From: a virus
Taxonomy: Duplodnaviria > Caudoviricetes
Reading direction: 5' to 3' (one strand)
Length of the DNA stretch: 64,000 nucleotides
IMG/VR virus record: IMGVR_UViG_3300015608_002119
Span: 1 to 64,000 of that record
Shown: in pieces, positions 6,030-58,237 of the stretch
Numbering within the stretch: the first letter of the stretch is position 1
Layout of the letters: each line of letters opens with the position of its first letter
Position numbers and translations under genes: made by a program
The notes under the pieces: model-generated
What the model was told of the DNA's origin: nothing
Seen by the model: only the letters and a program-made list of their open reading frames with translations
Databases searched by the model: none

Positions 6030-6596
6030 TTACTTTCCTCGTACGTACGTTCCGAACGTGTATTGTAGCCCGGCTAGTTCTGGCTGTGTATGCATTTGGC
6101 CTTGTTTGTCTTCGTGCGGTTCCGAGTCGATCATCTTCCATCCGTGCACGTCGCTTACGAGCTCGTCGTATGGAAAACGTGCATCTCCCTGTGCTTCAGC
6201 GCCGATGATGGTGAGGTATACTTTCGAGCAGGGTATGCCGCCATCGATCAGTACGCACTCCCGGTAGAGCGCCTCACCGCCGATCACGAACAGCTCCGAA
6301 ACATCCCCGCCAAGGCCCCTAGCCGCCCGTTCTAGGGCCTCCGATATTGTTTGGCATACCAGGACACCTTCAGGGCATTTCAAGCCCCCAGATCGGCTTA
6401 AAACGACGTTTAATCTGCCGGGGAGTGGCTTGCCAAGCGACTCGTACGTTTTTCGGCCCATGACGACCGGGCAGCCCATTGTTAGCCGCTTGAAACGTTT
6501 AAGGTCCGATGGTAGCCGCCACGGGATTATGCCGCCGTTGCCGATGATTCCGTTACTGGACATCGCGGCTATTGCCGTTATGGTTGGTGATGACAT
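6030..6596 (-). CDS. folA: Dihydrofolate reductase
   Basis: IIG..G.IPW.LPSDLKRFK, MGRKTYESL..PLPGRLNVVLS, VIGGEALY, GDARFP. Confidence 0.95.
   Translation of the reverse strand: MSSPTITAIAAMSSNGIIGNGGIIPWRLPSDLKRFKRLTMGCPVVMGRKTYESLGKPLPGRLNVVLSRSGGLKCPEGVLVCQTISEALERAARGLGGDVSELFVIGGEALYRECVLIDGGIPCSKVYLTIIGAEAQGDARFPYDELVSDVHGWKMIDSEPHEDKQGQMHTQPELAGLQYTFGTYVRGK
6312..6405. repeat. Bipartite ~90-bp dispersed element, copy A (inside folA)
   Basis: 22 nt identical to 23065-23086; right arm CATTTCAAGCCCCCAGATCGGCT at +64. Confidence 0.75.
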
Positions 6597-6626
6597 TGCG
6601 GTGTGATGATGAGTTAAACGGCCAGA

Positions 6627-7262
6627 TCAGCCGAAATCAATAGCAACGTCGAACACGACCTTGGCTTTGGGAATGCGCACATGGTTTACGATTCCATGCT
6701 TAAGCGTGTCGTTTGCGTTGAAGTAAAGGTCAGCATGGCTGTTGTCATGCACCAGCTTCTTGAAATATCCTGGCGCTTGCTTGCAGTTCTCATCAAGGAT
6801 TGAGTAGATCTGGTCATTAAGCCTCGTGATCTCCTTGGCTTCAACCTTGATGTCTTCCACTTTACCGAACGCGTATGATGCGGCATCGTGCACCATTACC
6901 GTTGCACTCGGAGCAATATATCGCTGCCCATCAGCGCCACATGAGAGAAGAATGGCACCGCAAGACATTGCCTTTCCCATGCAGATTGTTGCAACCGGTA
7001 CTGGCGATGATCTGATGATGTCGATCATCTTGAGAAGCGAATATACCTCGCCTCCGTATGAATCGATCACAACTGGAATGATTGTTTGCCCAGTGTTCTG
7101 CGCGTTGATCATCCCCTCCAGGAACTCCTTGGCAGACTCCTCACTGAACTTGTTTACACAGAGGATGTGTGGGGCATGCGCATTGATCGTTATCTCGCCG
7201 TTCTCTGTGATGGTTGGCTTTGATAGAATCGGGTTCCGTGCTTCGATTTGAAATATGCTCAT
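6627..7262 (-). CDS. clpP: ClpP-like serine protease
   Basis: IDSYGG, AMSCGA (catalytic Ser), MVHD; AAGGAG SD before ATG at 7262. Confidence 0.88.
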   Translation of the reverse strand: MSIFQIEARNPILSKPTITENGEITINAHAPHILCVNKFSEESAKEFLEGMINAQNTGQTIIPVVIDSYGGEVYSLLKMIDIIRSSPVPVATICMGKAMSCGAILLSCGADGQRYIAPSATVMVHDAASYAFGKVEDIKVEAKEITRLNDQIYSILDENCKQAPGYFKKLVHDNSHADLYFNANDTLKHGIVNHVRIPKAKVVFDVAIDFG

Positions 7263-7331
7263 ACTTCTCCTTGGTGGTCGTGCCACAACATGCGGTCGCT
7301 TCGAGCATACACATACTTAATCCAAAAATCC

Positions 7332-8477
7332 ATGGATAAGCGTAAGCAGCTGGCAGTCAAAGCCATTCGGAAGGTGATCAGAGAAGAGGCCGCTGGTAAT
7401 GCAGCGGCCGAGCAGCTGCTTCTGGAGCAGGGCCTTGTAGGAGCAGCAGGGCAGGCGGCAAAGGCAGCCGGTGGCGGCGTCATCAACCTGCTTGCACAGG
7501 CACTGTTTGGCAAAGGCAAGGGCACACCTCAACAAATCGCATCGTTGCGTGATGTGATTCGACGCGTAAGGACAAACCTTGCCGCCATCACAAACGCGTT
7601 CGTTTCTAGCGACTATGGGCTGTACAAGAAGCTGGGCTCAGAGCTCCGGAAGTTGCAAAAGGCATCCGAGGCGGCTTTCGCGGCAAACAACCCAAGGCAA
7701 GTTCAAGCATATCTGTCACAGGCCGCAACAGTGAGCGCATATATGTCTGCGTTTCCAAACATCGCAGAAGACATGGAGGCCATCTACAACGCACACATAG
7801 AAGAGATTGAATCGCCAACAATTTCTGCCGAGCAGCTCAACACCATCGTCAACATGATAAGCAACAATGTCCTTCGTGAGCTGAACGCAACAAACTATGA
7901 TAAGCTCGGCGCTCTCGGAAAGAGCATCAAGCTGCTTGGTATTAAGTGGAGCCCCGCCCCTGCCGGTCTTAAACCACAAGACATTGCCAACGCCATCACG
8001 AAGGACTTAAGAGATGCCATTCCTACTACTTCTACTGGTACTCCTCCTGCGCCAGCCGCAACACCACCAGCTCCGGTTGCCGAAGGATTCAAGCGCTCAA
8101 TACGCCTACTGTCGGAAAATGCGAAACGAGCAAGGTACCAAGTCGCCGTAGGCAACGCCTTTTGCGAGCTGCTTGAGAGGTACTCACCAATTAACGAGAA
8201 CGCACAGGAAACACTTCAGCAGTTTCGGGATGCCACAAAGACCGTGGCGCAGGGTGTGAGAAACGCCGCCGCTAAGGCACAACAGCCTCCTGCCATCGCA
8301 ACTGGGGCTCAGCCCCCGTCGGCATCAGGACAAATGGCAAGCCCAGCAGCGCAAGGCAGGGCAGCCAAGGTCAAGGGACTGCTTGGAAACGTTGGGAACA
8401 TCATCGGTTCTCTGACCCCAGAAGAGAAGCAAGCCCTAAAAGCTGACTTTGATGCCTTGAAGGCTAAGTTGGGTTGA
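7332..8477 (+). CDS. Ala-rich putative internal head protein
   Basis: TACTTA at 7314; repeated IREE, LLLEQ, LSEN, INEN motifs. Confidence 0.6.
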   Translation: MDKRKQLAVKAIRKVIREEAAGNAAAEQLLLEQGLVGAAGQAAKAAGGGVINLLAQALFGKGKGTPQQIASLRDVIRRVRTNLAAITNAFVSSDYGLYKKLGSELRKLQKASEAAFAANNPRQVQAYLSQAATVSAYMSAFPNIAEDMEAIYNAHIEEIESPTISAEQLNTIVNMISNNVLRELNATNYDKLGALGKSIKLLGIKWSPAPAGLKPQDIANAITKDLRDAIPTTSTGTPPAPAATPPAPVAEGFKRSIRLLSENAKRARYQVAVGNAFCELLERYSPINENAQETLQQFRDATKTVAQGVRNAAAKAQQPPAIATGAQPPSASGQMASPAAQGRAAKVKGLLGNVGNIIGSLTPEEKQALKADFDALKAKLG

Positions 8478-8480
8478 CTG

Positions 8481-9179
8481 TCAAAACCCATACCGCTTTA
8501 GATCAAGCGGTTCTTCCCTCGGAAGATCACTAAATCCACCAGCCGCATTGATCTTCTGAACCTCCGCATCTGTCAACACTCGGTTCACCTTCATCGCACC
8601 ACCAATGATCCAGTTTCCTGTCATGTTGGGATTGGTTTTGTAACGGTAGTGACCGCCACGTGGAATCTGGTCTGTGATGTGAGCTGTGGATGGCCTTATG
8701 TCACCCTTCCGAAGACCGGTCGACTTGCTGTCCTTTTTTACTCTCTCGGCTCGACTGTTTGCGACCGTCTGCCAGTCAACATCTGCTGGCATCTCTACCT
8801 CAGCCCACACCTGAGTCGATGGTCTGATGGTTGGCTTGTTATCTTTCAGCTTGCCGCCGATGTGCGTGGCCATTGGGTAATCACCGGCATGCCAGCCGGG
8901 CCGGTAAGCTAACGTTCCCAACGTCGACTTGACACCTGCCTTGCCGGTCTTGGTTGTAACCATCTTGCCTTCCTCTGCCTCATACCATACGCCTAGCTTC
9001 ACTGGCTTGTTGGCGTTGACAAACAGCGGAAACAGCTCTCCAGGTCGATTTGGATCGATCCTAAACAGCTTGTATGCCTTGATGGTTTTGGTTGGTGGCA
9101 CAAAGCCAGATGATGCCGGTTGAAGATCAATGGCCGGGCTGGTGGCTTCTGTGAGATATAGAAGGTCAGATAGTTTCAT
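8481..9179 (-). CDS. Stand-alone domain resembling those in large polyvalent proteins; leader MKLSDLLYLTEA
   Basis: AYKLFR, LFPLFV, LAYRPGWH, QVWAEVEMP, YRYKTNPN; recognised from memory only. Confidence 0.55.
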   Translation of the reverse strand: MKLSDLLYLTEATSPAIDLQPASSGFVPPTKTIKAYKLFRIDPNRPGELFPLFVNANKPVKLGVWYEAEEGKMVTTKTGKAGVKSTLGTLAYRPGWHAGDYPMATHIGGKLKDNKPTIRPSTQVWAEVEMPADVDWQTVANSRAERVKKDSKSTGLRKGDIRPSTAHITDQIPRGGHYRYKTNPNMTGNWIIGGAMKVNRVLTDAEVQKINAAGGFSDLPREEPLDLKRYGF

Positions 9180-9543
9180 AACCAAGAATAGCTTGTTTTG
9201 GTATGTCGTTTTTGGCAATCACTTCGTAATCGGCAGCGTCGGATGATACTGTATCAACATAGATCCCATTGACCTTTATCACGATCAATTCTTCATCTTC
9301 GTCAAATCGATCACCCAACCAATTCATCAAAGCATCTTCGACATCGTTCATATTACGGAACAAATAAACTCCGATTTCTTCACCTTCCATGTCTTGCGGT
9401 ACTGCCATCTTCAAGCCGTTACGTTTAATTGAATTCCAGTGTTTTTTTGTTGTAACATGATATAGTATATCGGCCTCTTCTAATGATTTATTTAATGAAG
9501 TTTTCCGATCGGCCTCGAACAACAGCTTGTACATTCTCATCAT
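9166..9543 (-). CDS. ADP-ribosyltransferase-fold protein (H-Y-E type), AT-rich
   Basis: LYHVT...SIKRNGL...GVYLF...YEV...IP; leader MYKLLFEA; TATTTA box at 9554-9559 (minus strand). Confidence 0.6.
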   Translation of the reverse strand: MMRMYKLLFEADRKTSLNKSLEEADILYHVTTKKHWNSIKRNGLKMAVPQDMEGEEIGVYLFRNMNDVEDALMNWLGDRFDEDEELIVIKVNGIYVDTVSSDAADYEVIAKNDIPKQAILGYETI

Positions 9544-9577
9544 TGTATGTTGATAAATATGTCACGGACGCTTACGC

Positions 9578-9811
9578 TTAGAACAGCGTATGTTGTGTGA
9601 TAGTCTCCGATGAGATGCTTGTGTTCGGATAGTTTCTGCACTCAGCACACTTGGCATCGAGCTTGTGTTGCGCAGTATATTCTGGTGGACAGTTTGGGCA
9701 TGTGCCATGTCTATGCCAACCACAATAACACTTCTCGCCTGGAGCGAGTTGATTGAGTGATTCCATCGCTTCCAGTTGTTCGTTATTGAACACCGACCAT
9801 CCATTACTCAT
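9578..9811 (-). CDS. Small Cys-rich (Zn-finger-like) protein
   Basis: CYCGW..GTCPNC, CAECR; coupled to the thyA stop. Confidence 0.5.
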
Positions 9812-10746
9812 ACTGCCACCTTCGCCTTGATTGCTGGGTGGTACGCGTACCCATCAAGCCGGATATCGTCAAACCCGAACGAGTCAATGCTCTTGATATC
9901 AGGATTCAACCAGAGCTTGGGCATTGCGTACGGCTCTCTGGCTAGCTGTGTGTTGATCATTTCCATGTGGTTGCTGTAGACGTGCAAATCGCCAAACGAG
10001 TGAACGAACTCACCGACTTGAAGATCGCAGACATGTGCTATCATGTGCGTTAGCAGTGCATATGAAGCTATGTTGAACGGCATACCAAGAAACGCATCAC
10101 AGCTTCTTTGGTATAGGTGGCATGATAGTCTTCCATTGTCGACATAGAACTGGAACAAGATATGACACGGAGGCAGCGCTGACTTGTCGATGTCTGCCGG
10201 GTTCCATGCGGTAACAACCAGGCGCCTAGAGTCCGGGTTTGATTTGATCTGCGCGATGACGTTGGCAATCTGGTCGATCGTTGAAGGCTTGTCGTGTAAA
10301 ATGCAGCTACTGTCACTATAAAATTGAAACTGTGAACCTCTTTGAAGCTCAATGTCGGCCTTGGTTCCGTCTGCAAAGAACACGGGCTCGAACTTTGCAG
10401 GCTTCGGCTCTGGCTTTGGAACCGCCCACTTTCTCCACTGCTTCCCATAAACAGGACCCAGGTTGCCGTCCTTGTCGGCCCACTCGTTCCAGATGGTAAT
10501 CTTGTTCTGTTGGAGCCATTTAACGTTCGTGTCGCCTTTCAAAAACCACAAAAGCTCTCCAACGACCGAGTGAAAGTGGACTTTCTTGGTTGTGAGGATC
10601 GGGAAGCCTTTCGATAGGTCGTACCGTGCTTGCCGCCCAAACACGCTCGTTGTGCCAGTACCAGTTCGGTCAGACCTTTTCGTGCCATTCTCAAGCACGT
10701 CACGTATGAGGTTGAAGTAGGTTTCGTCTGCGTTGTTGTATGCCAT
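9808..10746 (-). CDS. thyA: Thymidylate synthase
   Basis: [37 protein letters not shown]. Confidence 0.97.
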
Positions 10747-12190: not shown

Positions 12191-12195
12191 ATCTT

Positions 12196-14199
12196 ATGCA
12201 TCTCTCCTCCTCTCTTGGTTATGTTCCACTGATTAATCTCAGGGTGTTGAGCACTGATGCTGAGAGGGCACGTGGGTTCATGGGGTGGAAGGCGCCTCCA
12301 AACGACAAGTTCGGAATGTTGTTCAAACACGACCGTCCGAAAAGACAAAGCTACTGGATGAAAGACGTTCCATTTGACCTGGACGCCATAGGGTTTGACG
12401 AGAACAACCGGGCCGTTGAAGTGCTGCACCTGAAAGCCCACGACAAGACGCCTAGGAGGTTTATACGGGCCGTGCAAAACGTTGTTGAGGTCCGAGGCGG
12501 TTGGTGTCGAGAACATCGACTAGAAAAAGGCTGGGAGCTTCGTATGGGCATTGGGAACAATAGCGACATGACTGGTGTTGTTGACGAGGCCGCACGAACT
12601 CCGGAGTACGCATCATCAAAGAACATCGGTGCCTTGTGGGTGCCACCGGCTAGCCGCGACACGTCTGGCGCCGTGATATTGTGTTCGACCAATGCTGTTC
12701 AGAAGGACATGGGCGTGCATGGTGTGCTCAGACAGTCGAACATAGATCGCAGTGTTATTGTGGCCCAGGTCCGATTCATGATCGACCAGCACTACAACGA
12801 CCTATACCAAGCAAAGTACAGCTCGGCAACAAACAAGTTTGGTCCACTTGCTTATGAGATGTTACTGAACAAGCTGGCCAAGAACTACAACGGGTCTTGG
12901 CTGCACAGCGACAATCGTCTTTCGGCAGATGCCGCCAATGTGTGGGCCAAGTATTATGACCGGTCTGAGGCCGGTCAGGATATTGAACGTAAGTGGCTTG
13001 GTGATTGGGGCCTGATAAAAGCAGAGGACGCGTTTGACGCAATAGAAAATGACCTGCACGGGTCCGGGATTGATGTCGATGTGTCAACGGAGCAGGCATT
13101 CCTTACATTGCTCAAAAGGCTAAAAAACCACAACCTTGGCCCAAGGGACTTTGCTCATATGTGGGCTTATCGCCTGACGGCTGACAAGACAGAGATGTTT
13201 GCGCCGCTCTACCAGATCGGATCAAACATGGTCAATGATATCATCACGGCACAAGAGACTAGGCCCATCACTCGCAAGGAAGTTCTGGATATGTTTATGA
13301 CTGGCACGCTTGGCCACTTCTCAAGACTGTATGAAGACATGCCGCCAAAAGGCGACGTATCGTTGGCTGGAGTGTTGTATGCCGAAGCAGCCAGGACGTC
13401 GTTTGAGGCTGTGCACAATGAGATGGCCATACTGTTCACGTATGACAATCCCGCCGAAGACATAACAGTGACTCTTGTGTCTGTTGATGAGGTGGACGAT
13501 TTCATCTCTGTTGTGCGCAGCAAACCAAAGAATGCACGTCGTCTGACGGACTTGAAATGGTTGTTTGCCAACAAGGCCATTATAGGCTCAATCACGGCTA
13601 GACGCCGTCAAACAGACTTGTACGCGATTGATGCAACGGCAGCGACAGACAAGTATGGTCCGCTGCTATATGACCTGCTGATGGGGGCAATTTATCCGGC
13701 GTATCTAAGATCAGACACCAGACTTACGGCAGGGAGCCGAAACGTTTGGAACCAGATGTTCAGGCGCGATGATGTAGAGCGCGAATGGCTTGGTAACATA
13801 TCCAGCGTAATCGACATCAAGGAAACAATGCCTGCCGTGTTAAATGGCTGGGGGGCGTCTGCACGTGTTGCAGCCAGGGAATATGAGGAGAACCACCTGG
13901 ACTCCGAAACGGTTGAGAGTGGCGATGAGGCTTACAACAACTTCGTAGACTTCGTGCAGCGGCTATATCGAGTCAGCAAGGCCGATGGTGATAACATTGG
14001 CCCGTTCTTCGCTTATAGAAAGAAGCCAGGAAAGACAGAGCTTGGTGACTTCTCCAAGTTGTGGCGTCGAGGGATTGACATGGTGGATGAGCTGGCCAAG
14101 CTCTACGGCGTAACCAACAAGGATATACTCGACAAGGTCGACGAAGCAGGCCAGCTGCACTTCAACAACCTGTATATACCTCAGATCCGTAACACATGA
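12196..14199 (+). CDS. DUF192 domain followed by two tandem GNAT-like domains
   Basis: RARGFMG..GMLF..YWMKDVPFDLD..VVEVRGG; two GPLxYx..LxSDxRL....NVW repeats. Confidence 0.7.
   Translation: MHLSSSLGYVPLINLRVLSTDAERARGFMGWKAPPNDKFGMLFKHDRPKRQSYWMKDVPFDLDAIGFDENNRAVEVLHLKAHDKTPRRFIRAVQNVVEVRGGWCREHRLEKGWELRMGIGNNSDMTGVVDEAARTPEYASSKNIGALWVPPASRDTSGAVILCSTNAVQKDMGVHGVLRQSNIDRSVIVAQVRFMIDQHYNDLYQAKYSSATNKFGPLAYEMLLNKLAKNYNGSWLHSDNRLSADAANVWAKYYDRSEAGQDIERKWLGDWGLIKAEDAFDAIENDLHGSGIDVDVSTEQAFLTLLKRLKNHNLGPRDFAHMWAYRLTADKTEMFAPLYQIGSNMVNDIITAQETRPITRKEVLDMFMTGTLGHFSRLYEDMPPKGDVSLAGVLYAEAARTSFEAVHNEMAILFTYDNPAEDITVTLVSVDEVDDFISVVRSKPKNARRLTDLKWLFANKAIIGSITARRRQTDLYAIDATAATDKYGPLLYDLLMGAIYPAYLRSDTRLTAGSRNVWNQMFRRDDVEREWLGNISSVIDIKETMPAVLNGWGASARVAAREYEENHLDSETVESGDEAYNNFVDFVQRLYRVSKADGDNIGPFFAYRKKPGKTELGDFSKLWRRGIDMVDELAKLYGVTNKDILDKVDEAGQLHFNNLYIPQIRNT
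12200..12230 (-). repeat. AGTGGAACATAACCAAGA repeat with purine tail, copy 1
   Basis: 18-nt exact match to 29916-29933 (-) and 46661-46678 (+). Confidence 0.85.
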
Positions 14200-17759: not shown

Positions 17760-20700
17760 TTATGAGCAGCGGCTGTAGCCGCAGTCAAGGCACTGCACGC
17801 AGCCGTCCTTATAGGCTAGGCTCTTAGAGCCACACTCCGAGCACTTCTTGGAGTTTGACTGGATTTTTGTGCCATCGACGATATAGTTCTTCAGGACCCG
17901 AGCCAGAACCTTGCTGATCGAGAACAGGTCGCTCTCGCGATCACCTGCTTTCGTGAGCTGCTCAACAATGAACTGCACCGGAACGCCGTGGCGCATCGAC
18001 AGGGACAGCATTCTCGTATAACCGGAATGCACCGGGTTCTCAAAGATGTTGCCAACGTCGCTGATCACCATTTCATCCTCCGGCAATTCCTCATAGTCGA
18101 AGTGAAAGTCGTATCTCGCAGGATTTATGTCGCCGTTGTGCTTGGACAGCTTACCGGCCTTGACTCGTTTCGGAATCTTGATGAACTTGCTAAGCCCACC
18201 CATGATCTCGTATGGTCGATCATCCAGCTTTCCAACGAATATCGTCCACTTCTCACCTTGCACGGTGGAGTGGTAAACGTCGCACGCTAGCTCGTTTGGA
18301 CGTTTGGCTGCGTGGTTGATCAGGCTGCCAAAAGATTGTTGCTTGTCTTTGTTGGCAGTTGATGACTCAGTGGAGGACACCAGCACGCCACTGCGAGAGC
18401 CGTCGCGATAGACCGTGAACCCCTTACAGCCACTCTTCCATGCGCGCAGATAGACCTCACTAACAAGTTCTTCTGTTGCGTCTTTTGGAAGGTTGCACGT
18501 CTTGCTGATGCTGTGCGCAATCCACTTCTGGGCTGCGGCCTGTAGATCGACGGACATCTTCCAGTCAACGTCTGCTGATGTGGCCTTCCAGTAAGGAGAG
18601 TTCTCTGGGGAGATAAGGTTCTCCGCGGCACCACACTCTCGTTGCTCCTTGCACCAGCGCTCATACCCACCATGCCGAACCTCGAACTCGGTCCACTTGT
18701 CTCCGAGCTCATCAACATAGTCGACCCGTGCATCGACATCGTTTGGATTGATTTTCTTCCTTCTCTTATAGCTGATCAGGTAAGCTGGCTCAATACCGCT
18801 AGTTGTTCCGTGGATGTTGTGCTTCTCAGACACAAGAGCCAGCATCGATGTAGTGCCTGCTGGTGGCGTGGTCGTGTCTGCGATGTTCCTGCGGCCATAC
18901 TTCAAGTAACGATCGCGATACACCGGACCAAGATAATCGTACTGGTTACTAGCCTCAAGCACTCGTGTAAGAAATGGATGGTCTTTCTCCTTGCCGTAGT
19001 CATACACCGGGAACGAGCCGCGTTGCATTGCCATATCCACAGATGACCTGAACGCGTTAACAGCCATGACCTTGTATAGACGATCGATATACTCAATACT
19101 CTCCTGACTGCCGTAGCGCAAACCAACGGCAGCCACAAGGTCACCAACTCCGGTGAGTCCAAGCCCGGTGCGCCTTCCCTGAGCACAGACACGTGATATG
19201 TTGGTCCACAGGTTAAGCTCTGGTTGCTTTGTGTCGTCATCCTCTGGGTCGTTCTTGATCTTTGCAATGATCTTGTCGATCGCTTCAAGCTCAAGGTCAA
19301 CAAGGTCGTCCATCAGCCGCTGAGCATCATAACAGGCAGCTGCGAACTTTTGAAAGTCAAACCTATCAGGCGATTCTGGAGGCACGCCCTCATTCAGAAA
19401 GCCCATACAATTAACCAGTAGAAGCCTGCACGCGCCCCAGGCTTCTAGAATTATTTCGCCGCAGTTCGACACGAGCAATCCACCGGTCCAGTATGTGTGT
19501 TCTGGGGCATCAACGGTGATGTCGAACACGTCCTCTTTGCTGACAGGTTTAACCTCAATGATCTCGTGTGTGTGTTCGGGCAGCGTTGTCTCTGGCCTTT
19601 CCAACAGCTCGCCTAGCGCCTTCTGTTGGTCTTGGTCTGTGAACCCAACGAGCTGACTGAACAACAACTGGTCGTGTCGTGTATTGATGCGTAGAACATC
19701 AATGGCGCCATTGCAGTCTGTTGTTTGGTGAGATTCAATGCCAATGGCCGACAGCATCAATTGAATGCGCTCAATCAGCTTAACGCTACTCCAGTGCTCA
19801 AATCTGATTTGGTCATTAGCAATATATCCGAACGCGTCAGTCAATGCCATTAAGAGCTGGCGCAACTCTTCCAAGTTCGCCTTGTAATCGGCGTGCAGTG
19901 GTGCTGTTGCAGCATCATAAGCGACACTAGAATCACATAGACTCAGTGGCTTGGCAACGGGTGGCATTCCTTGTGATGAATCAATCGACTCTGCCAGTCC
20001 CGCCTCGACCTTTTCCCCGTTCGAGACAACCCGATGGTTCTTTGTGCCATAGAACACACCAGCATGTGTCCTAAAGCTATGAACTGGCTTGACGCCAGTT
20101 GCAACCTTCCTGATAATCTTGGTCCATTGCTTACCGGACCAGATCGTGTCACCAACAGATACTTGCCCGAGCGTCCTGATGCCATCCGGTGTCAAGACGG
20201 TGGCCCATGCTGGCTGGCATGGGTTCGTTGATATTGACTCAAAACCAACGTCCGCGTAACAGTCAGACGGCGTCTGGGAAGTGACCGTGTCCCAGAACAG
20301 AGCTCCAGGTTCGGCGGAGTCCCACGCAGCATGAACGAACTGTTTCCATATATCCCTGGCGATAACGCGCTTGGTGATCTTTGGCGTCTTGCTATTGACT
20401 GGCCAGCGCAGCTCTACGTCCCGGTCTTCCACGATGGCGTTAAGAAACTCGTCTGACCACCGTACGGAGATATTCGCTCCGGTGACCTTCTTGAGATCGC
20501 GTTTGATGTTGATGAACGTCTCGATTTCTGGGTGGTGGCATGAGATCGTGAGCATTAGCGCTCCACGCCTGCCGCCCTGTGCCACTTCGCGACACGTGTT
20601 CGAGAACCGCTCCATGAACACGCCGATTCCATCGGTGGTGCTGGCGGCGTTGGCCGTTGGTAGCCCACGTGGCCGGATGTTGGAGATGTCGTGCCCAACA

Positions 20701-21122
20701 CCTCCGCGACGTTTCATGATTTGCGCCTGTCGCTGGTCTGTGTTGAGAATAGACCCGTACGAGTCCTGGCAGGACGGGATCACAAAGCAGTTGCCAAGCG
20801 ACAAGAGCTGGTGTGGATTTCCAATACCAGCCATCGGGCTTCCTTGAGGAATAAGCTCTTTGAACTTATGGAATCGCTGATAGATCGAGTCAGCTGACAG
20901 CGCATTGCCATACTTCGATTCAATCCTGGCAAACTCTGCCGCCATACGCCGGTGCATGTCGTCGGGCGTTGCTTCAAGCAGATTGCCGCCGTTATCCTTC
21001 ATCGCGTACTTGCCAACAAACGCCTTGGCACCCAGCTCATTGCCATTCAGGTACTTGGTCGTCTCAGCCAAGGCTGTTTCATAGTCTACGATCACGTTTT
21101 TACTACCAGCTGCCATCTTCAA
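17760..21122 (-). CDS. nrdJ: Class II (adenosylcobalamin) ribonucleotide reductase with intein
   Basis: NCFV, RRGGVG, RRGA, NPC|intein|CGE, PAGT, SGIEP, SISKT, KGFTVYRDGSR, C-terminal Zn ribbon; no small subunit nearby. Confidence 0.9.
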   Translation of the reverse strand: MKMAAGSKNVIVDYETALAETTKYLNGNELGAKAFVGKYAMKDNGGNLLEATPDDMHRRMAAEFARIESKYGNALSADSIYQRFHKFKELIPQGSPMAGIGNPHQLLSLGNCFVIPSCQDSYGSILNTDQRQAQIMKRRGGVGHDISNIRPRGLPTANAASTTDGIGVFMERFSNTCREVAQGGRRGALMLTISCHHPEIETFINIKRDLKKVTGANISVRWSDEFLNAIVEDRDVELRWPVNSKTPKITKRVIARDIWKQFVHAAWDSAEPGALFWDTVTSQTPSDCYADVGFESISTNPCQPAWATVLTPDGIRTLGQVSVGDTIWSGKQWTKIIRKVATGVKPVHSFRTHAGVFYGTKNHRVVSNGEKVEAGLAESIDSSQGMPPVAKPLSLCDSSVAYDAATAPLHADYKANLEELRQLLMALTDAFGYIANDQIRFEHWSSVKLIERIQLMLSAIGIESHQTTDCNGAIDVLRINTRHDQLLFSQLVGFTDQDQQKALGELLERPETTLPEHTHEIIEVKPVSKEDVFDITVDAPEHTYWTGGLLVSNCGEIILEAWGACRLLLVNCMGFLNEGVPPESPDRFDFQKFAAACYDAQRLMDDLVDLELEAIDKIIAKIKNDPEDDDTKQPELNLWTNISRVCAQGRRTGLGLTGVGDLVAAVGLRYGSQESIEYIDRLYKVMAVNAFRSSVDMAMQRGSFPVYDYGKEKDHPFLTRVLEASNQYDYLGPVYRDRYLKYGRRNIADTTTPPAGTTSMLALVSEKHNIHGTTSGIEPAYLISYKRRKKINPNDVDARVDYVDELGDKWTEFEVRHGGYERWCKEQRECGAAENLISPENSPYWKATSADVDWKMSVDLQAAAQKWIAHSISKTCNLPKDATEELVSEVYLRAWKSGCKGFTVYRDGSRSGVLVSSTESSTANKDKQQSFGSLINHAAKRPNELACDVYHSTVQGEKWTIFVGKLDDRPYEIMGGLSKFIKIPKRVKAGKLSKHNGDINPARYDFHFDYEELPEDEMVISDVGNIFENPVHSGYTRMLSLSMRHGVPVQFIVEQLTKAGDRESDLFSISKVLARVLKNYIVDGTKIQSNSKKCSECGSKSLAYKDGCVQCLDCGYSRCS
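19464..20219 (-). mobile_element. Intein (252 aa) with degenerate LAGLIDADG remnant
   Basis: Starts CQP, block B TKNHRV, ends VFDITV...LLVSN followed by Cys. Confidence 0.88.
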
Positions 21123-22673: not shown

Positions 22674-22725
22674 GGTGCTGTTTGGTGTTTTGTCTTGTTG
22701 CCTATGTGTCGGACAGTAGAGACAG

Positions 22726-22757
22726 AATCGCCCCTGGTGGTTATACCAGGGGCGATT
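22726..22757. terminator. 13-bp stem hairpin between exonuclease and helicase
   Basis: AATCGCCCCTGGT-GGTTAT-ACCAGGGGCGATT. Confidence 0.6.
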
Positions 22758-22797: not shown

Positions 22798-23829
22798 CTA
22801 CTCCGACAAGGTCATCAATCTCTTGAGCTGAGTGAATGAACGATCGATACCCGCATCAACCGGAATATCCACCGCGGCAAACACCTTGATATAGTCAAGC
22901 CTGTTGCACACCTTGTTGTTGTCGTGCTCGTCGATCTTGTAGTTGATCTTGGCAATCTGGTTTGCCGCTAGACTTGACGCGTCCAGGTACATCAGCTTCC
23001 AGTTGCGTTCGATAATGTCCGCGGACGACTTGATGCTCTCGTAGCACTTCGGAACACGGCCGCTAAGGCCCCTAGCCGCCCGTTCTGCGGCCTCAAACAA
23101 CCAGGACGTATCCAAGTCCACGTCGTCACGTTTCAGGTCCTGAAATCGACTCGTAATCGTTTTGAACCCGATCCCGTCAACACCGTCCAGATTATCCGAC
23201 GGATCACCAACAACAGCGCGCGCCAGTGTGATGTTTCGTGGGTGTGCGGCAAAGTTTTCCAACACCCAACCGGCGTCTATGATGATCTTGCGTGCAGGAT
23301 CATATATTCTGACCGTGTCATCTTCTAGCAGCTGGTAGAAGTCCTTGTCGCTTGACATAACGAACTTGGTTCGCCGTTTGCCCTCCAACATCTCTGACCG
23401 GTACTTCTGCTTCACAATATAGGCAATCACATCATCTGCTTCCGTGTCCGGGACATAAACCTGACACACGGGCGTATGGCTCAAAGCCTTCGCGCACAGA
23501 GACAACTGGAAGATCTTGTTGCTCTCGTCGGAGGAAGCCTTGTACTTACCGTCCTTCCGATACATCTCATTGATCTTCTTGTTTGTTGATCGGTTGGCTT
23601 TATAGCCTGGGAATATGTGCTTCCTCCTCTGAGATGGTCCGCCTTGTTCCCACACCACAAACAGTTTCTCTGGCTTTAGCAGCTCTGTCGCTGCTCCAAT
23701 TGCCTTGATAAACCCGGTCGCGCCTCCAACAAGTTGTCCACCAGCATTAACCGCTTCGGAGACTGCAAAGTGACGCATGAACACGTTAAGCCCGTCAACC
23801 ACCAAGATACTGTTTTGTATTGCCATCAT
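22798..23829 (-). CDS. 5'-3' exonuclease / T4 RNase H-like flap nuclease
   Basis: VDGLN, YKANR, EADD, SSDKDFYQL, GDPSDNLDGV.GIG.KT. Confidence 0.92.
   Translation of the reverse strand: MMAIQNSILVVDGLNVFMRHFAVSEAVNAGGQLVGGATGFIKAIGAATELLKPEKLFVVWEQGGPSQRRKHIFPGYKANRSTNKKINEMYRKDGKYKASSDESNKIFQLSLCAKALSHTPVCQVYVPDTEADDVIAYIVKQKYRSEMLEGKRRTKFVMSSDKDFYQLLEDDTVRIYDPARKIIIDAGWVLENFAAHPRNITLARAVVGDPSDNLDGVDGIGFKTITSRFQDLKRDDVDLDTSWLFEAAERAARGLSGRVPKCYESIKSSADIIERNWKLMYLDASSLAANQIAKINYKIDEHDNNKVCNRLDYIKVFAAVDIPVDAGIDRSFTQLKRLMTLSE
23065..23158. repeat. Bipartite ~90-bp dispersed element, copy B (inside exonuclease gene)
   Basis: AAGGCCCCTAGCCGCCCGTTCT; right arm CGTTTCAGGTCCTGAAATCGACT at +64. Confidence 0.75.
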
Positions 23830-24984: not shown

Positions 24985-25019
24985 GAAAGGCCGGTGGGAT
25001 TAAATCCCACCGGCCTTTC
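24985..25019. terminator. Intrinsic terminator hairpin downstream of the AAA ATPase
   Basis: GAAAGGCCGGTGGGAT-TAA-ATCCCACCGGCCTTTC. Confidence 0.8.
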
Positions 25020-25080
25020 ATTTATTGGTCGTGTGTCGATTAGTTGCCAGCTGGTTAGCTGGTTGCTGGCTGTTAAACAC

Positions 25081-27915: not shown

Positions 27916-27938
27916 GCCGACAGCTTCAATGCTCTGAT

Positions 27939-27973
27939 AAAAGAGAAAGGGCGGCTGCCGCCCTTTCTCTTTT
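27939..27973. terminator. Bidirectional terminator between convergent genes
   Basis: AAAAGAGAAAGGGCGGC-T-GCCGCCCTTTCTCTTTT. Confidence 0.85.
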
Positions 27974-27989
27974 GCTGTTGCAACTGATA

Positions 27990-29899: not shown

Positions 29900-29945
29900 C
29901 CCCCCTTCCCCCTCTTCTTGGTTATGTTCCACTAGCTCGTCCGTA
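29900..29945 (-). repeat. AGTGGAACATAACCAAGA repeat, copy 2 (intergenic)
   Basis: 33 of 34 nt match to 46649-46682, followed by G-runs. Confidence 0.88.
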
Positions 29946-46091: not shown

Positions 46092-47288
46092 ATGGTCAAC
46101 GACAATGACACCATACGGAAGCTCTACCTCCTACCCGACCCGCCAGCACCCCCTAGATCGTTCCAGAATGCTTTTAAGTCGATCCGGACGGACTTGGTGG
46201 GCTCTCGGGTGCCTTGGCAATTTGCGCTCCCGTATAAGGCGTATAGGAGCTTCTGTGAGGAACAGGAGAAATACCAGACCAATTTCTTGTCCAAGCTCGA
46301 CCTGTCCTACTATCAGAACGTGTACTTGCCGACCGAGGAGCTGTTCTCGTTTCTCAGACCGGCAAGAATAACGAGTGATATGGGCTTGTTCGAGAGGCTG
46401 GCCGAGGAAGACACGGCTGGCCATGTGCTTACGTTCCGCCCAGGGCCAGACGGGTTTACTCGGCACGTGCCGGACTATTCGCGCATCAAGTCTGTAACGG
46501 GCCGACTTACTACGAGCTCGACCGGTCCAAGGATCCTTAATCTACAGAAAGACCATAGAAAGATTCTGGTGTCTCGTTTTCACCAAGATACCGGTTTGGT
46601 GGTCGCTTTGGACTTTAAGTCATTGGAACCAAAGGTACTTTTACATGCTACGGACCAGCTAGTGGAACATAACCAAGAAGAGAGAGGGGAGGGGGAAGAA
46701 AACATCGACATATACCAGTCGTTGCTTGATAGAGTGCTAGAGAACAGGCCAGACTTGCAAACACTGCTCGGTCGAGACAACATGAAGCAGCTCGTTGTGT
46801 CGGAACTTTATGGGGCTGGACTGGCACGTCTCCAGGCGATGTTGCCTAAATCCTTGCCGCCGCGTGACGTTGGTTGGTTGGCTGCGCTGGTAAAGGAGTA
46901 TTTTCGTTCAGATTTGCTGTTGGAGCGTCTGACAAAGGAGTGGGTTAACAACGATTGCAAGTATATTCTGAACGGGTACGGCAGACCGGTGGCCACAGTC
47001 TCCAACAACTTGTTGATCAACCATTATGTTCAAAGCACCGCTGTTGATATTGCAATGATTGGTTTCCTATCAATGGTTAAATACCTTGAGGCAATCGACG
47101 CTTTGGACCGCGTTGTCCCGATTTATCTTGTACACGATGCGATAGTCTTTGATGTCCGAGCCGATTCCTTGCCTTTGGTTTATTCACTGGCTAAGATCGG
47201 CGTTAGCGACATTCCGTCGTTCGCAGGCTCGTCCAAACCTATCACCTCACTGGCACTTAAAGTCGACAGGCTGTTTGCTGGGCCGTAA
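46092..47288 (+). CDS. Compact family-A DNA polymerase (no exonuclease domains)
   Basis: TGRL, DFKSLEPKV (motif A), R...K.......YG (motif B), NHYVQSTAVD, VHDAI (motif C). Confidence 0.8.
   Translation: MVNDNDTIRKLYLLPDPPAPPRSFQNAFKSIRTDLVGSRVPWQFALPYKAYRSFCEEQEKYQTNFLSKLDLSYYQNVYLPTEELFSFLRPARITSDMGLFERLAEEDTAGHVLTFRPGPDGFTRHVPDYSRIKSVTGRLTTSSTGPRILNLQKDHRKILVSRFHQDTGLVVALDFKSLEPKVLLHATDQLVEHNQEERGEGEENIDIYQSLLDRVLENRPDLQTLLGRDNMKQLVVSELYGAGLARLQAMLPKSLPPRDVGWLAALVKEYFRSDLLLERLTKEWVNNDCKYILNGYGRPVATVSNNLLINHYVQSTAVDIAMIGFLSMVKYLEAIDALDRVVPIYLVHDAIVFDVRADSLPLVYSLAKIGVSDIPSFAGSSKPITSLALKVDRLFAGP
46649..46695 (+). repeat. AGTGGAACATAACCAAGA repeat, copy 3 (inside the polymerase gene)
   Basis: Near-identical to the reverse complement of 29900-29945. 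Confidence 0.88.
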
Positions 47289-53807: not shown

Positions 53808-53901
53808 GCATTAAGCGTAGTATATCGTGTCCGAATGGCGGTATGAGTGGCGATCGATCGATCGTTGCTGACCGCCAAAACAACGAAAGCACTACACGCA
53901 T

Positions 53902-54243
53902 ATGTCAACACCGAAACAATCTATCAGCCTTACAACAGCCGCGGCGTCATCGATCGGAGCATTGATGGTCCTGTGGATCATTATGGCTCTCATGTTTGGT
54001 GTGCGCGACACCAGCGTTGGTACGCTTGTACAAACAGACGCAGCAGTGGACGTTGCTGCAACAACATTGCTGGCCGATAGCGGCATGCAGACGGTCGACG
54101 CCGCAACCGATACCTCCGAGGTAGAACCAGTAGAGACCTCTGTAACGGTCACAGCCAGGACAGTTTTGTTCTCGGCCGACGTACCACTGGCCGGTGACGA
54201 TGCCGATGATGTACCTCCGGAGGAGCGCGGCTGCTCGCACTGA
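53902..54243 (+). CDS. Single-pass membrane protein
   Basis: IGALMVLWIIMALMFGV; acidic tail. Confidence 0.55.
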   Translation: MSTPKQSISLTTAAASSIGALMVLWIIMALMFGVRDTSVGTLVQTDAAVDVAATTLLADSGMQTVDAATDTSEVEPVETSVTVTARTVLFSADVPLAGDDADDVPPEERGCSH

Positions 54244-54452
54244 TAACAAACAGCAGAAAATTAATCACAATATAACTTTCTCTAATGCCAGTTGGCTTGA
54301 ACCAAGTTGTAAACCAGACAAACATACATCTGCCAAGCAGCTCAGCACACCAGTAGCTGCAAACCATTGCAAACAACAACCATCAATAACAGCTTGGTCA
54401 TGGCACGAGAAGAACATTCAACCACAAAGCCAAGAAAGACCAAGTTAAACCA

Positions 54453-54890
54453 ATGTTTCTGTTTCGTCTGTTCCAAACAATCACGCTGATCATTCTAGGA
54501 CTCTGCCGCGGTCTTACCAGGGATCAAGCAGAGCTGATGGCACACGTTATCAGCGACACATCGATCACACACGAGCAAGCGGCGATGTTGATCACGGTCT
54601 CATATTATGAAACCGGCTTTCGTACCAGCGGCGGTGTGGTGCCGTTTGGTGTGACATCAATACGAAGCGTGTGCCGACCACAAGGCAGTCTGGATGAGTG
54701 TGCTAGCGCGTCTTTGGCCATCTTGAACAGGGCACGACGATGCTCGTCAGACATGGAACGCGTGTTTGGGTTTTACCACACGGGCCGCTGTGTGGCCGAC
54801 GAGTACAGCATACGCCAAGCGTCGACATACCGGCTTGTCGTCCGTACTCTCAACAGTTCTATCCCATCGATCACCGACGGTCTGCTCTGA
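54453..54890 (+). CDS. Secreted lysozyme/transglycosylase-like protein
   Basis: Signal-like N-terminus, SYYETGF, YHTGRC. Confidence 0.45.
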   Translation: MFLFRLFQTITLIILGLCRGLTRDQAELMAHVISDTSITHEQAAMLITVSYYETGFRTSGGVVPFGVTSIRSVCRPQGSLDECASASLAILNRARRCSSDMERVFGFYHTGRCVADEYSIRQASTYRLVVRTLNSSIPSITDGLL

Positions 54891-54943
54891 ATCACGTAAT
54901 CGGCTTGACTCCGGCCTGACAGGCTGTTATCGTGGCGCTCACG

Positions 54944-56044
54944 ATGAGCAAGGTGTTGGTTGGAATGTCTGGCGGGGTTGACTCCGCCGTTGCGGCTGCA
55001 ATTCTTAAGAGTGAAGGTCATGAGGTTGTCGGCCTGACCCTCAAGCTGCTCGAATACTCTTGCGACGACAGCCCAGGTTGCTGTACGGCGTCTGATATTA
55101 TCGACGCTACACGTGCATGTGACTCGATCGGCATCGAGCATGTCGTGATATCGCGAAAGGTCGCGTTCAAGTCGCAGGTGATCGACCCGTTTCTAGAGCT
55201 GCACAAGCAAGGCGTATATACGAACCCGTGCGTCACATGCAACACGCACGTAAAGGTTCCGCAGCTTATCGACATCGCAGACCACATGGGGTTTGATTTC
55301 ATTGCGACCGGCCATTATGCGAACCGGTCTGCATGTGGGAATTATATCGTACGTGGAAATGACCGGTCCAAGGACCAGAGCTACTTCCTCTGGGACCTGC
55401 CGCCCTCAGCGATCGGGCGCCTCTTGCTGCCGCTTGGTACCTACACCAAGGCCGAGACACGCAAGCTGGCCAAGAGCTTTGCACTGAAGGTTGCGACCAA
55501 GAAGGACTCTACGGACTTGTGCTTCCTTGAAGGGAAGTCGAAGAGGGAGTTTCTCACAAAGCATGGTGTTGGCACTGAGGCCGGTAACGTCGTTGACTCG
55601 GCTACCGGGGCTGTTCTTGGTACCCATAACGGTTTGGCTAGGTTTTCACCGGGCCAGCGTTACGGTGTCGATACCAAGACCGGCAAGCCGCGGTACGTTC
55701 TAAACGTGCTCCCAAGCTCAAACACCGTCCAACTTGGACCGATCGAAGAGACATTTACGAGTTCGGTTCGGGTACAGGGCCTGCGCATTCGGTGCCCAGA
55801 CCGGTCTCTCAACGGTATGCCACTGACAGCCGTGTGTCGATACTCAAGCAAGCAAAGCCCCGTACCGGTTATCGAAATCAGCGGGGTAACCATGCTAGAG
55901 CTCGATGATGGCGATGACGGTCCTGAGTTTCTTCCGACGGTCATGTTCGACCGGCCAATCAATGGCGTCGCAAACGGACAGTCGATCGTTCTGTACGACG
56001 AGACCGATGGCGCTGTCGTCGGTGGTGGCACGATCGTTGCCTAA
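54944..56044 (+). CDS. mnmA: tRNA 2-thiouridylase MnmA
   Basis: SGGVDS, NPCVTCN, ATGHYA, KDQSYFL, KKDS.DLCF, GQR, GQS.VLY...GGG. Confidence 0.93.
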   Translation: MSKVLVGMSGGVDSAVAAAILKSEGHEVVGLTLKLLEYSCDDSPGCCTASDIIDATRACDSIGIEHVVISRKVAFKSQVIDPFLELHKQGVYTNPCVTCNTHVKVPQLIDIADHMGFDFIATGHYANRSACGNYIVRGNDRSKDQSYFLWDLPPSAIGRLLLPLGTYTKAETRKLAKSFALKVATKKDSTDLCFLEGKSKREFLTKHGVGTEAGNVVDSATGAVLGTHNGLARFSPGQRYGVDTKTGKPRYVLNVLPSSNTVQLGPIEETFTSSVRVQGLRIRCPDRSLNGMPLTAVCRYSSKQSPVPVIEISGVTMLELDDGDDGPEFLPTVMFDRPINGVANGQSIVLYDETDGAVVGGGTIVA

Positions 56045-56092
56045 CGATTTAATCCCTTGACTCTCACAGGACGAGCTGGTAACGTGCAGGCT

Positions 56093-56347
56093 ATGAGTAG
56101 TGACGCCAGCAGAAAGACCACAACCATCTGTCTGTTTCAGGACATGGTCGTGAAGTGTGGTTATTACCCAGTAGCCATCGAGGGCGTGAAGCCCTCGCTC
56201 TCACTCCAAAGCGTAGAAAGCGGCGATTTTCTGCGATGCCACTTCGACACCGAGAACCCCGGTGATCGCGAGGCCCTGCGAAGGCTTAGCGCCCAGCTGG
56301 CCGAGATTGTTCGCGACATCAACAATACGTACGGCGAGAGGGAGTAG
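56093..56347 (+). CDS. Hypothetical early protein
   Basis: TTGACT-N17-TAACGT promoter at 56057-56085. Confidence 0.55.
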   Translation: MSSDASRKTTTICLFQDMVVKCGYYPVAIEGVKPSLSLQSVESGDFLRCHFDTENPGDREALRRLSAQLAEIVRDINNTYGERE

Positions 56348-56356
56348 GGTATCACA

Positions 56357-56569
56357 ATGGCTCGTTCTGAACGTTCGCACACGCCTGTCAAGGTCCGGGA
56401 TTGGGTTGCTGTCGCTGCGCACTTTCGCAGCTCGGCTGGCCCGATGCGCCACCGATGCGTCGAGCGCGGCGGTGCAAGGAACGCAATGCCCGGTATGATG
56501 TTCGAGTACCTCGACGAGCTTGATGACATCGATGAGCCAACCGCGGTCGAGCTCACATCCTCTGTCTGA
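56357..56569 (+). CDS. Hypothetical protein
   Basis: GGAG upstream. Confidence 0.5.
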   Translation: MARSERSHTPVKVRDWVAVAAHFRSSAGPMRHRCVERGGARNAMPGMMFEYLDELDDIDEPTAVELTSSV

Positions 56570-56600
56570 TCGCGAACAGAGACAAGAAACAACAGCAACA

Positions 56601-56933
56601 ATGTCAAACAACAACATGTCCAGCAACGGTCCATCGTCCAAGGCGCGCAAGGCGCGCAAGTCACAGTTCAAGCCAGGAATGACTGTCGTGGTAAATGGCA
56701 GTCGCGGCTCTGATCGGATGCTGATGAAGGCCGAAACCCCAGAGTCGCTGGTCGTGCAATTGCTTGCACGGGAAAACAACCCGGACATTACTGACGTTCA
56801 ACAGTTCATGGCCAGAACTGCCGTAGAGGTCAAGTCCGTGGTTGGCGCGGATGTTCTGCCAACTCATTCTGCGGCTTCTTTTGTTGAGGGCCTGTTCAGG
56901 CTATCAATCATCGAAGAGGCAGTGCTCAACTAG
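56601..56933 (+). CDS. Hypothetical protein
   Basis: A/C-rich leader. Confidence 0.5.
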   Translation: MSNNNMSSNGPSSKARKARKSQFKPGMTVVVNGSRGSDRMLMKAETPESLVVQLLARENNPDITDVQQFMARTAVEVKSVVGADVLPTHSAASFVEGLFRLSIIEEAVLN

Positions 56934-56939
56934 CAAGCA

Positions 56940-57272
56940 ATGGACAACCAGCGCCTTCCGGAAATAAAGGCATGGGTTGAGAGCGACTCAGAGCACCCGG
57001 TCCCAGGCGAACTGGTTGCCGTGGTGATAGACTATGACGCGGAACTGACGGCTCATGGCCCGTTCTTATACATTGCGCGCGTATGCGAACCACCGCCGAT
57101 ATGGGATTACTATGTGTTGCTTGATCAACACGGGCACACACGCAACGTCAACATAGGATTTTGTACCGGGTCGATTCGTGCACATGTTGTGTGCCGCTAC
57201 GAAAACAGGGAACGCGTCCTTGCTGACGGGTTCTTGAAGTCGTACATCGACGCTGCCACTACTGCCAAGTAA
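56940..57272 (+). CDS. Hypothetical protein, paralog 1
   Basis: IKAWVESDSEHPVPGELVAVV. Confidence 0.6.
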   Translation: MDNQRLPEIKAWVESDSEHPVPGELVAVVIDYDAELTAHGPFLYIARVCEPPPIWDYYVLLDQHGHTRNVNIGFCTGSIRAHVVCRYENRERVLADGFLKSYIDAATTAK

Positions 57273-57305
57273 CAACAAAGCTCAGTTCAACTCTTCGGTG
57301 CCTCC

Positions 57306-57656
57306 ATGCCATATAAAACCATGAAAGCGTGGGTTGAAGCCGACACGGAGCACCCTGCCCTGGGTGAGATTGTTTCCTTTGTTGTTGTGGCAACTATGCA
57401 GCATCTAGGTGGCGGTACCATGGTTGATATTCCACACGTATGCGAAATGGTTGATGCGTGCTTGTGCATCGAAATAGTCAACAAGCAATCGCCGCACTGG
57501 AGCTATTATGAGCTACTGGGACCCACAGGCGAGACCTATGCAGTAAACATTTTGTCGGACACGATGCCCAGGGTGTTTATCTGCTGGTACGGGAACGCAT
57601 CAAAGGCATTTTCCCTTGACTTCCTGGAACGCAGCGTGATATGGTCTCCGACATGA
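57306..57656 (+). CDS. Hypothetical protein, paralog 2
   Basis: MKAWVEADTEHPALGEIVSFVV. Confidence 0.6.
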   Translation: MPYKTMKAWVEADTEHPALGEIVSFVVVATMQHLGGGTMVDIPHVCEMVDACLCIEIVNKQSPHWSYYELLGPTGETYAVNILSDTMPRVFICWYGNASKAFSLDFLERSVIWSPT

Positions 57657-58147
57657 GCGCGTACGTACCAAAGCATCGGAATGACGCGGCATATATGGCC
57701 GCGGACGACATTGTTCGGGCGCCGTTTCATCGACACGTTGACATGGCGCTTGCGTTCGCTCGCTCTCATAAGTTTGACGAGAGCCTCGTGGCGCATGTCG
57801 CTGCCGTGATCATCTCTGGTGGGCGTGTTTTGTCGATCGGCTACAACAGCCGTAGCAATTCTGGCTTGCAGGCGGCGTACAAGACGAACCCGAACTGCAC
57901 GAGTATTCACGCAGAGGTCGACGCGATCCTGAATGTCCGACGGAAGATCAACCTCAGAGGTAGCAGGGTGGTCGTGGTGCGCAAGCTCCTGAATGACAGG
58001 GAGAACAACCCTCTCGTGGCGCTTGCTAGGCCGTGCCCTATGTGTGAGGCGGTCTTGCACAGCTACGGCGTCAAGCGGGCCATGTACACGATCGACAATG
58101 GTGCGTACGGGATCATGCGTGTGACGGATCCCAGGGAAGCCCGCTAG
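57653..58147 (+). CDS. Cytidine/dCMP deaminase-fold protein
   Basis: SIGYN, HAEVDAI, ARPCPMC. Confidence 0.85.
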   Translation: MSAYVPKHRNDAAYMAADDIVRAPFHRHVDMALAFARSHKFDESLVAHVAAVIISGGRVLSIGYNSRSNSGLQAAYKTNPNCTSIHAEVDAILNVRRKINLRGSRVVVVRKLLNDRENNPLVALARPCPMCEAVLHSYGVKRAMYTIDNGAYGIMRVTDPREAR

Positions 58148-58237
58148 GGCCTCCAGGCGCCCGAGCAGCGCCAGCAAATATACCGGCCGTGCCTCCGGGC
58201 AGTCAAAACGTTTCAGGCCCCAAAACGGGCGTATAGG
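58146..58237. repeat. Bipartite ~90-bp dispersed element, copy C (intergenic)
   Basis: AGGGCCTCCAGGCGCCCG left arm; CGTTTCAGGCCCCAAAACGGGC at +63. Confidence 0.6.

Follow-up and report, generated by a model that had tools for sequence, protein, structure and literature searches.

Among sequences described so far, the REP (repetitive extragenic palindromic) and BIME (bacterial interspersed mosaic element) repeats of Enterobacteria are the closest known kind to the element reported here, an imperfect palindrome of about 110 nt dispersed over a 163,485-bp IMG/VR virus contig (estimated completeness about 44%) from a large uncultured tailed phage, the first 64 kb of which (64,000 nt) form the window analysed. 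BIMEs extend over 40–300 bp. Their REP units are palindromes of 20–40 bp with a GTAG or CGTC head (PMC3733652). Roles in termination, mRNA stability and supercoiling have been proposed for these repeats, with which the phage family shares its dispersed palindromic nature, its position 3' of stop codons, an apparent DNA-level signal and a comparable composite size. All 10–12 full copies indeed lie at or after stop codons, and the same holds in two other phage contigs, G001 and G002. By contrast, the phage element is a single unit fixed at about 110 nt rather than a REP mosaic, shows neither GTAG nor CGTC at either end, is borne by a phage clade without having been found in bacterial genomes, and in some copies overlaps coding sequence. 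The REP-associated tyrosine transposase (RAYT; Y1 HUH, PF01797) was absent from the 163-kb contig in a search whose control was positive in 6 of 14 genomes, which does not prove its absence from the phage, since the contig represents about 44% of the genome.

Among phages, the stoperators of Cluster A mycobacteriophages are asymmetric sites of 13–14 bp at which a phage protein blocks transcription, and the early genes of phage T7 are separated by RNase III processing sites, a set of about ten intergenic imperfect hairpins that share one orientation and contain internal loops. The present element resembles the former in that a single conserved site recurs many times, in short gaps between genes and in the direction of transcription, but it is about 110 bp long, has inverted arms and a conserved centre, and any repressor acting on it is putative. 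It resembles the latter as a set of co-oriented intergenic imperfect hairpins in one phage genome, but is longer, shows no RNA-type wobble preference and has opposite-strand copies in genes. With the Rickettsia palindromic elements (RPEs), which are in-frame insertions adding 30–50 residues (PMC10969869, PMC3733652), it shares its occurrence both between genes and inside intact protein-coding genes; however, it adds at most one residue, replaces or overprints a variable loop, and is always antisense. The gyrase motif of Escherichia coli is symmetric, covers 130 bp and has flanks with a period of 10.75 bp, and the BIME-2 repeats found at gene ends act as strong gyrase sites that do not depend on transcription (PMC6379681). 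The phage element is like this motif and phage Mu's strong gyrase site (SGS) in its footprint of about 110–130 bp, its two-fold symmetry and the helically periodic GC content of its arms, a resemblance in size, symmetry and periodicity which appears real but generic; Mu has one central site and the gyrase motif is degenerate, whereas the phage element occurs in at least 13 strictly conserved copies clustered 3' of genes. The family lacks defining features of REP proper, of MITEs (miniature inverted-repeat transposable elements), of RPEs, of Rfam RNAs and of intrinsic terminators. What sets it apart is that it is phage-borne, consists of one fixed unit of about 110 nt, is conserved in a clade, and is found on rare occasions as length-neutral antisense overprints on genes.

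An original prediction made from the window had singled out three look-alike sites, two of them inside the genes for dihydrofolate reductase (DHFR, folA) and a FEN-type exonuclease and one between genes, as candidate strong gyrase sites. These three sites are true members of a palindromic repeat family of about 110 nt. Their sequence was described accurately: the 22-mer AAGGCCCCTAGCCGCCCGTTCT is exact at 6312–6333 and 23065–23086 (no such match in 100 shuffles), both genes, which lie on the minus strand, encode the peptide ERAARGL there, and the second arms, at 6376 and 23129, start exactly 64 nt past the first. At 58146, where the third site begins at the TAG stop codon of the dCMP deaminase gene, 14 of 18 nt match, and CGTTTCAGGCCCC follows at 58209 (+63). 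Similarity between the folA and exonuclease copies extends over 48 nt at 83% identity (6294–6341 versus 23047–23094). The core between the arms, regarded as unrelated, is in fact partly conserved within the family. A bipartite element with rough symmetry and a length of about 110 bp, overprinted on coding sequence without insertion, is supported, while the idea of a rare site hidden in genes gives way to a dispersed family. An assembly chimera, which could have explained the match, is excluded, since close relatives (85–99% protein identity, many independent assemblies) carry both genic copies, which recur in independent Logan, ENA and JGI assemblies.

The family is an ungapped imperfect palindrome in which reverse-complementing the right arm gives roughly the left arm, with the consensus AAACACCCCCGCCAAGGCACCYAG.CGCCCGTTCTGAGCCCG ... 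GTCCCGGAC ... GGGCYCARAACGGGCGTATAGGAGCTCC; the reverse complement of the 22-mer resembles AGAACGGGCGTATAGGAG, a motif that recurs over the contig. An nhmmer profile built from seven intergenic copies only, with the genic copies excluded, recovered three further full copies together with the exonuclease and folA copies on the plus strand (Table 1). The ten full copies align without gaps, and a position weight matrix (PWM) made from them, again without the genic copies, placed the left arms of the two genic copies 8th and 9th when every contig position on both strands was ranked, while genic right arms at the fixed offset (±1) have a genome-wide frequency of 3.5e-4 each. A bipartite scan of the contig gave 10 full copies, 2 weaker ones and 3 in genes, so that the profile scan of contig and relatives, proposed as a check on the initial idea, did yield more copies (at least 13–15 family members on the contig). 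Unit length is fixed and mean column identity among copies is 63–65%. Two further periodic patches, at 79.4 kb and 90.9 kb, do not belong to the family. Spacings range from 2 to 35 kb, and a regular ladder was rejected on this account; a small conserved peptide encoded by the element was likewise rejected, no frame being open in all copies. The genic right arms resemble a subfamily in which AGAATCGAC replaces AGAACGGGC, seen at 130960, 155042 and 160231. At one further site, the right-arm-only match ATAAGGCGTATAGGAG, the PWM finds no left arm, and this site is probably not a full family member.

Table 1. Members of the repeat family and the genes that carry or adjoin them (contig positions; the window is positions 1–64,000)
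Feature	Position	Strand	Evidence or remark
DHFR (folA) gene, carries genic copy 1	6030..6596	-	Pfam PF00186, 5.9e-41
Genic copy 1, antisense in DHFR; left arm 6294-6341, right arm 6376-6398	6290..6400	+	nhmmer E 2.7e-5; covariance model 24.6 bits; PWM left arm 37.6 bits, right arm p 3.5e-4
FEN-type 5'-3' exonuclease gene, carries genic copy 2	22798..23829	-	Pfam PF02739, 6e-23
Genic copy 2, antisense in exonuclease; left arm 23047-23094, right arm 23129-23151	23043..23153	+	nhmmer E 5.3e-7; covariance model 37.4 bits; PWM left arm 42.1 bits, right arm p 3.5e-4
Right-arm-only match ATAAGGCGTATAGGAG in plus-strand ORF	46234..46249	+	3 mismatches to right-arm core; PWM 13.1 bits
dCMP/cytidine deaminase gene, 3' end adjoins copy 3	57641..58147	+	Pfam PF00383, 2.3e-11
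Full intergenic copy e58k (copy 3)	58124..58246	+	nhmmer E 1.6e-24; covariance model 84 bits
Gene 3' of copy 3, without family match	58261..58803	+	ORF list and codon-usage score
Full copies	58124, 68661, 111826, 123289, 138007, 141620, 149891, 160231, 162373	+	Bipartite scan
Full copy	157859	-	Bipartite scan
Weaker copies	130960, 155042		Bipartite scan
Third genic copy	99179	-	Inside plus-strand 808-residue ORF

Each full copy begins no more than a few tens of bases from a plus-strand gene's stop codon, some supplying the last codons of that gene, and 10 of 11 share the orientation of the gene upstream, as judged from codon-usage-scored open reading frames (ORFs); eight clear cases in G001 and G002 show the same post-stop, upstream-gene-oriented placement. 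A TTGACT-N17 promoter lies downstream of six copies, often nearly leaderless, and between 15 and about 500 nt separate a copy from the start codon that follows, which indicates that the element belongs to gene ends and not to gene starts. A T7-like promoter, suggested by the resemblance of the right arm CGTATAGGAG to phage RNA polymerase promoters, was dropped, its distance from the following start codon ranging from 37 to 500 nt (PF00940 had no match on the contig, although the control search gave none either). The copy e58k begins over the final codons of the deaminase gene and its TAG stop, and its end lies 15 nt short of the following start codon; it is present in all ten near-identical relatives and invariant in eight. 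Two near-identical relatives (L048 and L054) lack the 12 nt ACCGGCCGTGCC of its centre (window 58185–58196) and carry one left-arm change, so that the centre tolerates the loss of about one helical turn. Full copies are found mostly in the early-gene region, 12 copies lying within 111–163 kb.

A search of a phage DNA database matched no relative at the DNA level. The family is present elsewhere. The contig G001 (113 kb), with no other alignable DNA, holds six copies that score as high as 88 bits under the covariance model; in one of them the 22-nt right arm is the same as in the copy e149k (149991) here. G002 (241 kb, exonuclease 55% identical) has a diverged version with the arms GCCTTAT / ATAAGGC. 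Judging from these sequences, the family is specific to a clade of large uncultured phages and older than these phages. Among 185,579 bacterial and archaeal genomes no multi-copy source was found, only 10 singleton hits, below the number estimated for chance, in which just the pattern region matched the family profile; a pattern scan of metagenomes gave no match. A host-derived REP or MITE was rejected on these grounds. Conservation across phages with genes down to about 55% identity argues for function over junk.

We see about an even chance that the family is a cis-acting boundary element of double-stranded DNA at transcription-unit ends, with genic copies arising by recombination. Such an element would be recognized on double-stranded DNA by a sequence-specific protein, or would extrude a cruciform, and would act at unit ends in the manner of REP/BIME or phage stoperator-type sites, where it may stop transcription, insulate it or manage local DNA topology. 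The copies in folA and in the exonuclease gene would overprint variable surface loops, antisense and length-neutral, and short-patch recombination (gene conversion) with other members of the family probably put them there; their 22/22 identity probably reflects a recent conversion between the two.

A 3'-end hairpin of early messages, which would terminate or protect them or be cut by RNase III, the genic copies being inert antisense survivors, is a rather unlikely alternative. Full copies follow stop codons in the orientation of the upstream gene in about 19 of 20 cases, often before the next promoter, and few canonical hairpin-plus-T-run terminators occur in the early region, with a simple finder that was too permissive for quantitative use. 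RNA folds of the copies reach −35 to −53 kcal/mol, and all three or four genic copies (three on the contig and one candidate in a related phage) are antisense to the gene that carries them, a bias which could reflect function or else sense-strand stop codons in most frames. The arms also co-vary: in a MAFFT alignment of 22 copies from three phages, covariation was 0.234 versus 0.162 in shuffles (0/500) and 0.055–0.136 in slid controls, figures uncorrected for subfamily relatedness, with double changes in 9 of 14 arm pairs and five compensated positions in one G002 copy. However, mismatches in the arms comprise 25 G·U and 30 A·C cells (p 0.59), so that no wobble bias exists on either strand and assignment of an RNA strand by this means was rejected; antisense RNA folds better than sense RNA in seven of nine copies; no T-run (U-tract) follows the right arm at the copies, as an intrinsic terminator would have; Rfam covariance models gave no match at E <= 1; primary sequence is conserved far beyond the requirements of a stem; and variants of the antisense exonuclease copy still follow the family profile. 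GC content is periodic, in line with the alternation of GC and AT patches noted in the arms roughly every helical turn, with a peak at 11.25 bp (family-wise p 0.002), a weaker signal at 10.75 bp (p 0.02) and none of significance at 10.5 bp, although a palindrome of alternating GC and AT blocks could be expected to give such periodicity as well. The missing wobble bias, T-run and Rfam match, the modest folds, the GC period and the strict primary sequence lead us to read the family as a DNA-level element, which would be either a cruciform or a protein site whose paired half-sites are spaced by about six helical turns. An RNA hairpin we consider less probable.

Strong canonical hairpins with A/T runs were also observed at window 24985–25023, 27935–27977 and 22720–22755, two of the three being bidirectional and one directly 3' of the exonuclease stop codon; the phage therefore uses ordinary intrinsic terminators as well.

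The genic copies show how such an element can share its bases with a protein. Fifteen exonuclease orthologues (39–58% identity) align straight through the element region, the differences being confined to the segment that the conserved DLD.SW and PKCY motifs enclose, with one residue more here than in any of the 15. Eleven DHFR homologues aligned without a long insertion, and their loop length varies by 0–7 residues, a natural range within which the present DHFR falls. An RPE-type in-frame insertion was rejected by these alignments, and a foreign origin of the patches by their ordinary codon usage (44th and 71st percentiles). The genic copies are accordingly length-neutral overprints that add at most one residue, in loops variable among homologues. 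As for whether homologues lack the peptide, ERAARGL is absent from 15 of 15 exonuclease orthologues; some DHFR homologues read RAAERSLAG in the loop. Both genes of G002 lack the element, which indicates that the genic copies are young and lineage-specific. It should be noted that in G002 the DHFR domain (L086, G002:158939-159283) is the N-terminal part of a 338-residue ORF with a C-terminal extension of about 190 residues that has no counterpart here.

The left arm of the exonuclease copy is a variation hotspot in a protein otherwise 96–100% identical: 7 of 13 variants have DRAAGGL in place of ERAARGL, owing to three linked changes that lie within 11 nt, while EATERAARGL, instead of the EAAERAARGL found here (A to T), occurs in two others. 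The family score is unaffected by these four polymorphisms, of which three are non-synonymous, an outcome with P = 0.006 for four random substitutions, which points to templated change (conversion among members) or to a DNA motif under selection. It is at precisely the three linked sites that the variant departs from the folA 22-mer, and we infer that the 22/22 identity is most simply due to recent conversion. The suggestion that the motif is selected over protein sequence is supported by exonuclease variants that change residues yet stay in element space, and finds no support in folA, whose extra conservation does not reach significance (p about 0.1). Synonymous-site constraint was not borne out either, the exonuclease region being just mildly less variable than the rest of its gene. 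At the left edge of the folA copy (window 6285), divergence from the 85% relative jumps from about 1–9% to about 29%; no such jump was seen at e58k, and the element as a boundary of mosaic recombination was rejected.

Several observations weigh against a DNA boundary element spread into genes by recombination. Any protein that binds it is putative. Arms pair in only 73% of cells and single-strand fold z-scores are modest (+0.5 to −3.6), so that cruciform extrusion is not assured, and the covariation carries the caveat given above. Post-stop position and orientation with the upstream gene fit a 3'-end RNA hairpin equally well. Part of the genic right arms is ancestral coding sequence (SRF in exonuclease orthologues, SRS in DHFRs). 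In close relatives 2 of 116 columns of the folA block vary, versus 29% in the 3' half of the gene, but divergence from the 85% relative is mosaic along the genome and 10% of 116-nt stretches of the window have at most one mismatch, which deprives this conservation of significance. Lastly, no donor for the three-site exonuclease variant (CCCAGCAGCCCGATCT) was found on the contig.

A selfish or neutral palindromic repeat of MITE or REPIN type, spread by transposition or recombination and tolerated by accident in genes, is to our mind distinctly unlikely. Inverted-repeat arms and the concentration of copies in an early region of small genes would suit it, and MITEs are known in phage genomes (PMC11602168). 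Nevertheless, the copies are of fixed length and not near-identical (63–65% alike), flanking direct repeats or target-site duplications are not evident, e58k shows no presence/absence polymorphism among ten relatives, no Y1 transposase is encoded on the contig, the host genomes and metagenome scan offered no multi-copy source, and the family persists across phages otherwise diverged past alignment.

It is likewise improbable that the clade uses a helically periodic palindrome of about 110 bp as a DNA-level organizing site whose motif overrides amino acids in tolerant loops within essential enzymes. Such a site might serve gyrase, a nucleoid protein or a boundary factor, and might be written antisense where operons leave no room; variants that change E to D, R to G and A to T would then represent selection or conversion of the motif over protein sequence. 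We regard as more doubtful still that the copies are gyrase or topology sites, in which a symmetric and periodic DNA of about 110–130 bp would wrap gyrase and remove positive supercoils downstream of genes, and would be imposed on coding sequence where intergenic space is lacking. Size, two-fold symmetry and GC period do resemble the 130-bp E. coli motif (PMC6379681), the gyrase activity of BIME-2 repeats at gene ends offers a precedent (PMC6379681), the signal looks DNA-level, and exonuclease variants stay in element space despite their amino-acid changes. However, periodicity also follows from a palindrome of GC and AT blocks, the genic copies are lineage-specific, and strict conservation of primary sequence is unlike the degenerate indirect readout of gyrase. 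No type II topoisomerase is encoded on the 163-kb contig. Clustering in the early region with gaps of 30–35 kb elsewhere does not suggest evenly placed topological sites.

Chance resemblance through a shared peptide or codon bias, ERAARGL-like alanine- and glycine-rich helices being common, is extremely improbable and for practical purposes refuted by the independent profile (E 5.3e-7 and 2.7e-5) and the PWM: the likeness of the DHFR peptide to natural loops such as RAAERSLAG, the ordinary codon usage and the SRF and SRS residues in the right arms speak for it, but the exact 22-mer did not arise in shuffles, the right arms stand at a fixed offset (p about 1e-3 each), similarity to the intergenic copy at 149888 runs 5' past the palindrome, and no exonuclease orthologue has the peptide.

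Other features of the contig were recorded alongside the family. Its genes include those for primase, a DnaB-like helicase, ribonucleotide reductase and a tape-measure protein. The large subunit of ribonucleotide reductase (window 17760–21122, minus strand) has 1120 residues here versus 1190 in a close relative, whose longer protein has a LAGLIDADG_3 match (L041:4714-5032), which suggests an intein-like insert of variable size. A second motif family, AGTGGAACATAACCAAGAAGAG followed by a purine/G run, occurs at window 12192–12230, 29900–29945 and 46649–46699, at contig 78867, 100831, 106394 and 150076, and at L034:9404-9444; it lies directly upstream of genes on either strand, is kept in the otherwise unalignable G001, and looks like a promoter-plus-ribosome-site box. 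Beyond the window, the contig ends (162978–163485) in about 500 nt of tandem repeats with a 15-nt phase (GAGCGAACCTG... units).

Dispersed palindromic repeats are well known in bacteria and little described in phages. The antisense copies in DHFR and the flap endonuclease offer a case in which a non-coding DNA signal and a protein sequence share the same bases, and they suggest that dispersed repeats, by recombining with one another, can rewrite loops of proteins. If gyrase, a boundary protein, a nuclease or another partner were found to bind the element, the family would provide a handle on the partitioning of early transcription units or on DNA topology in large phages.

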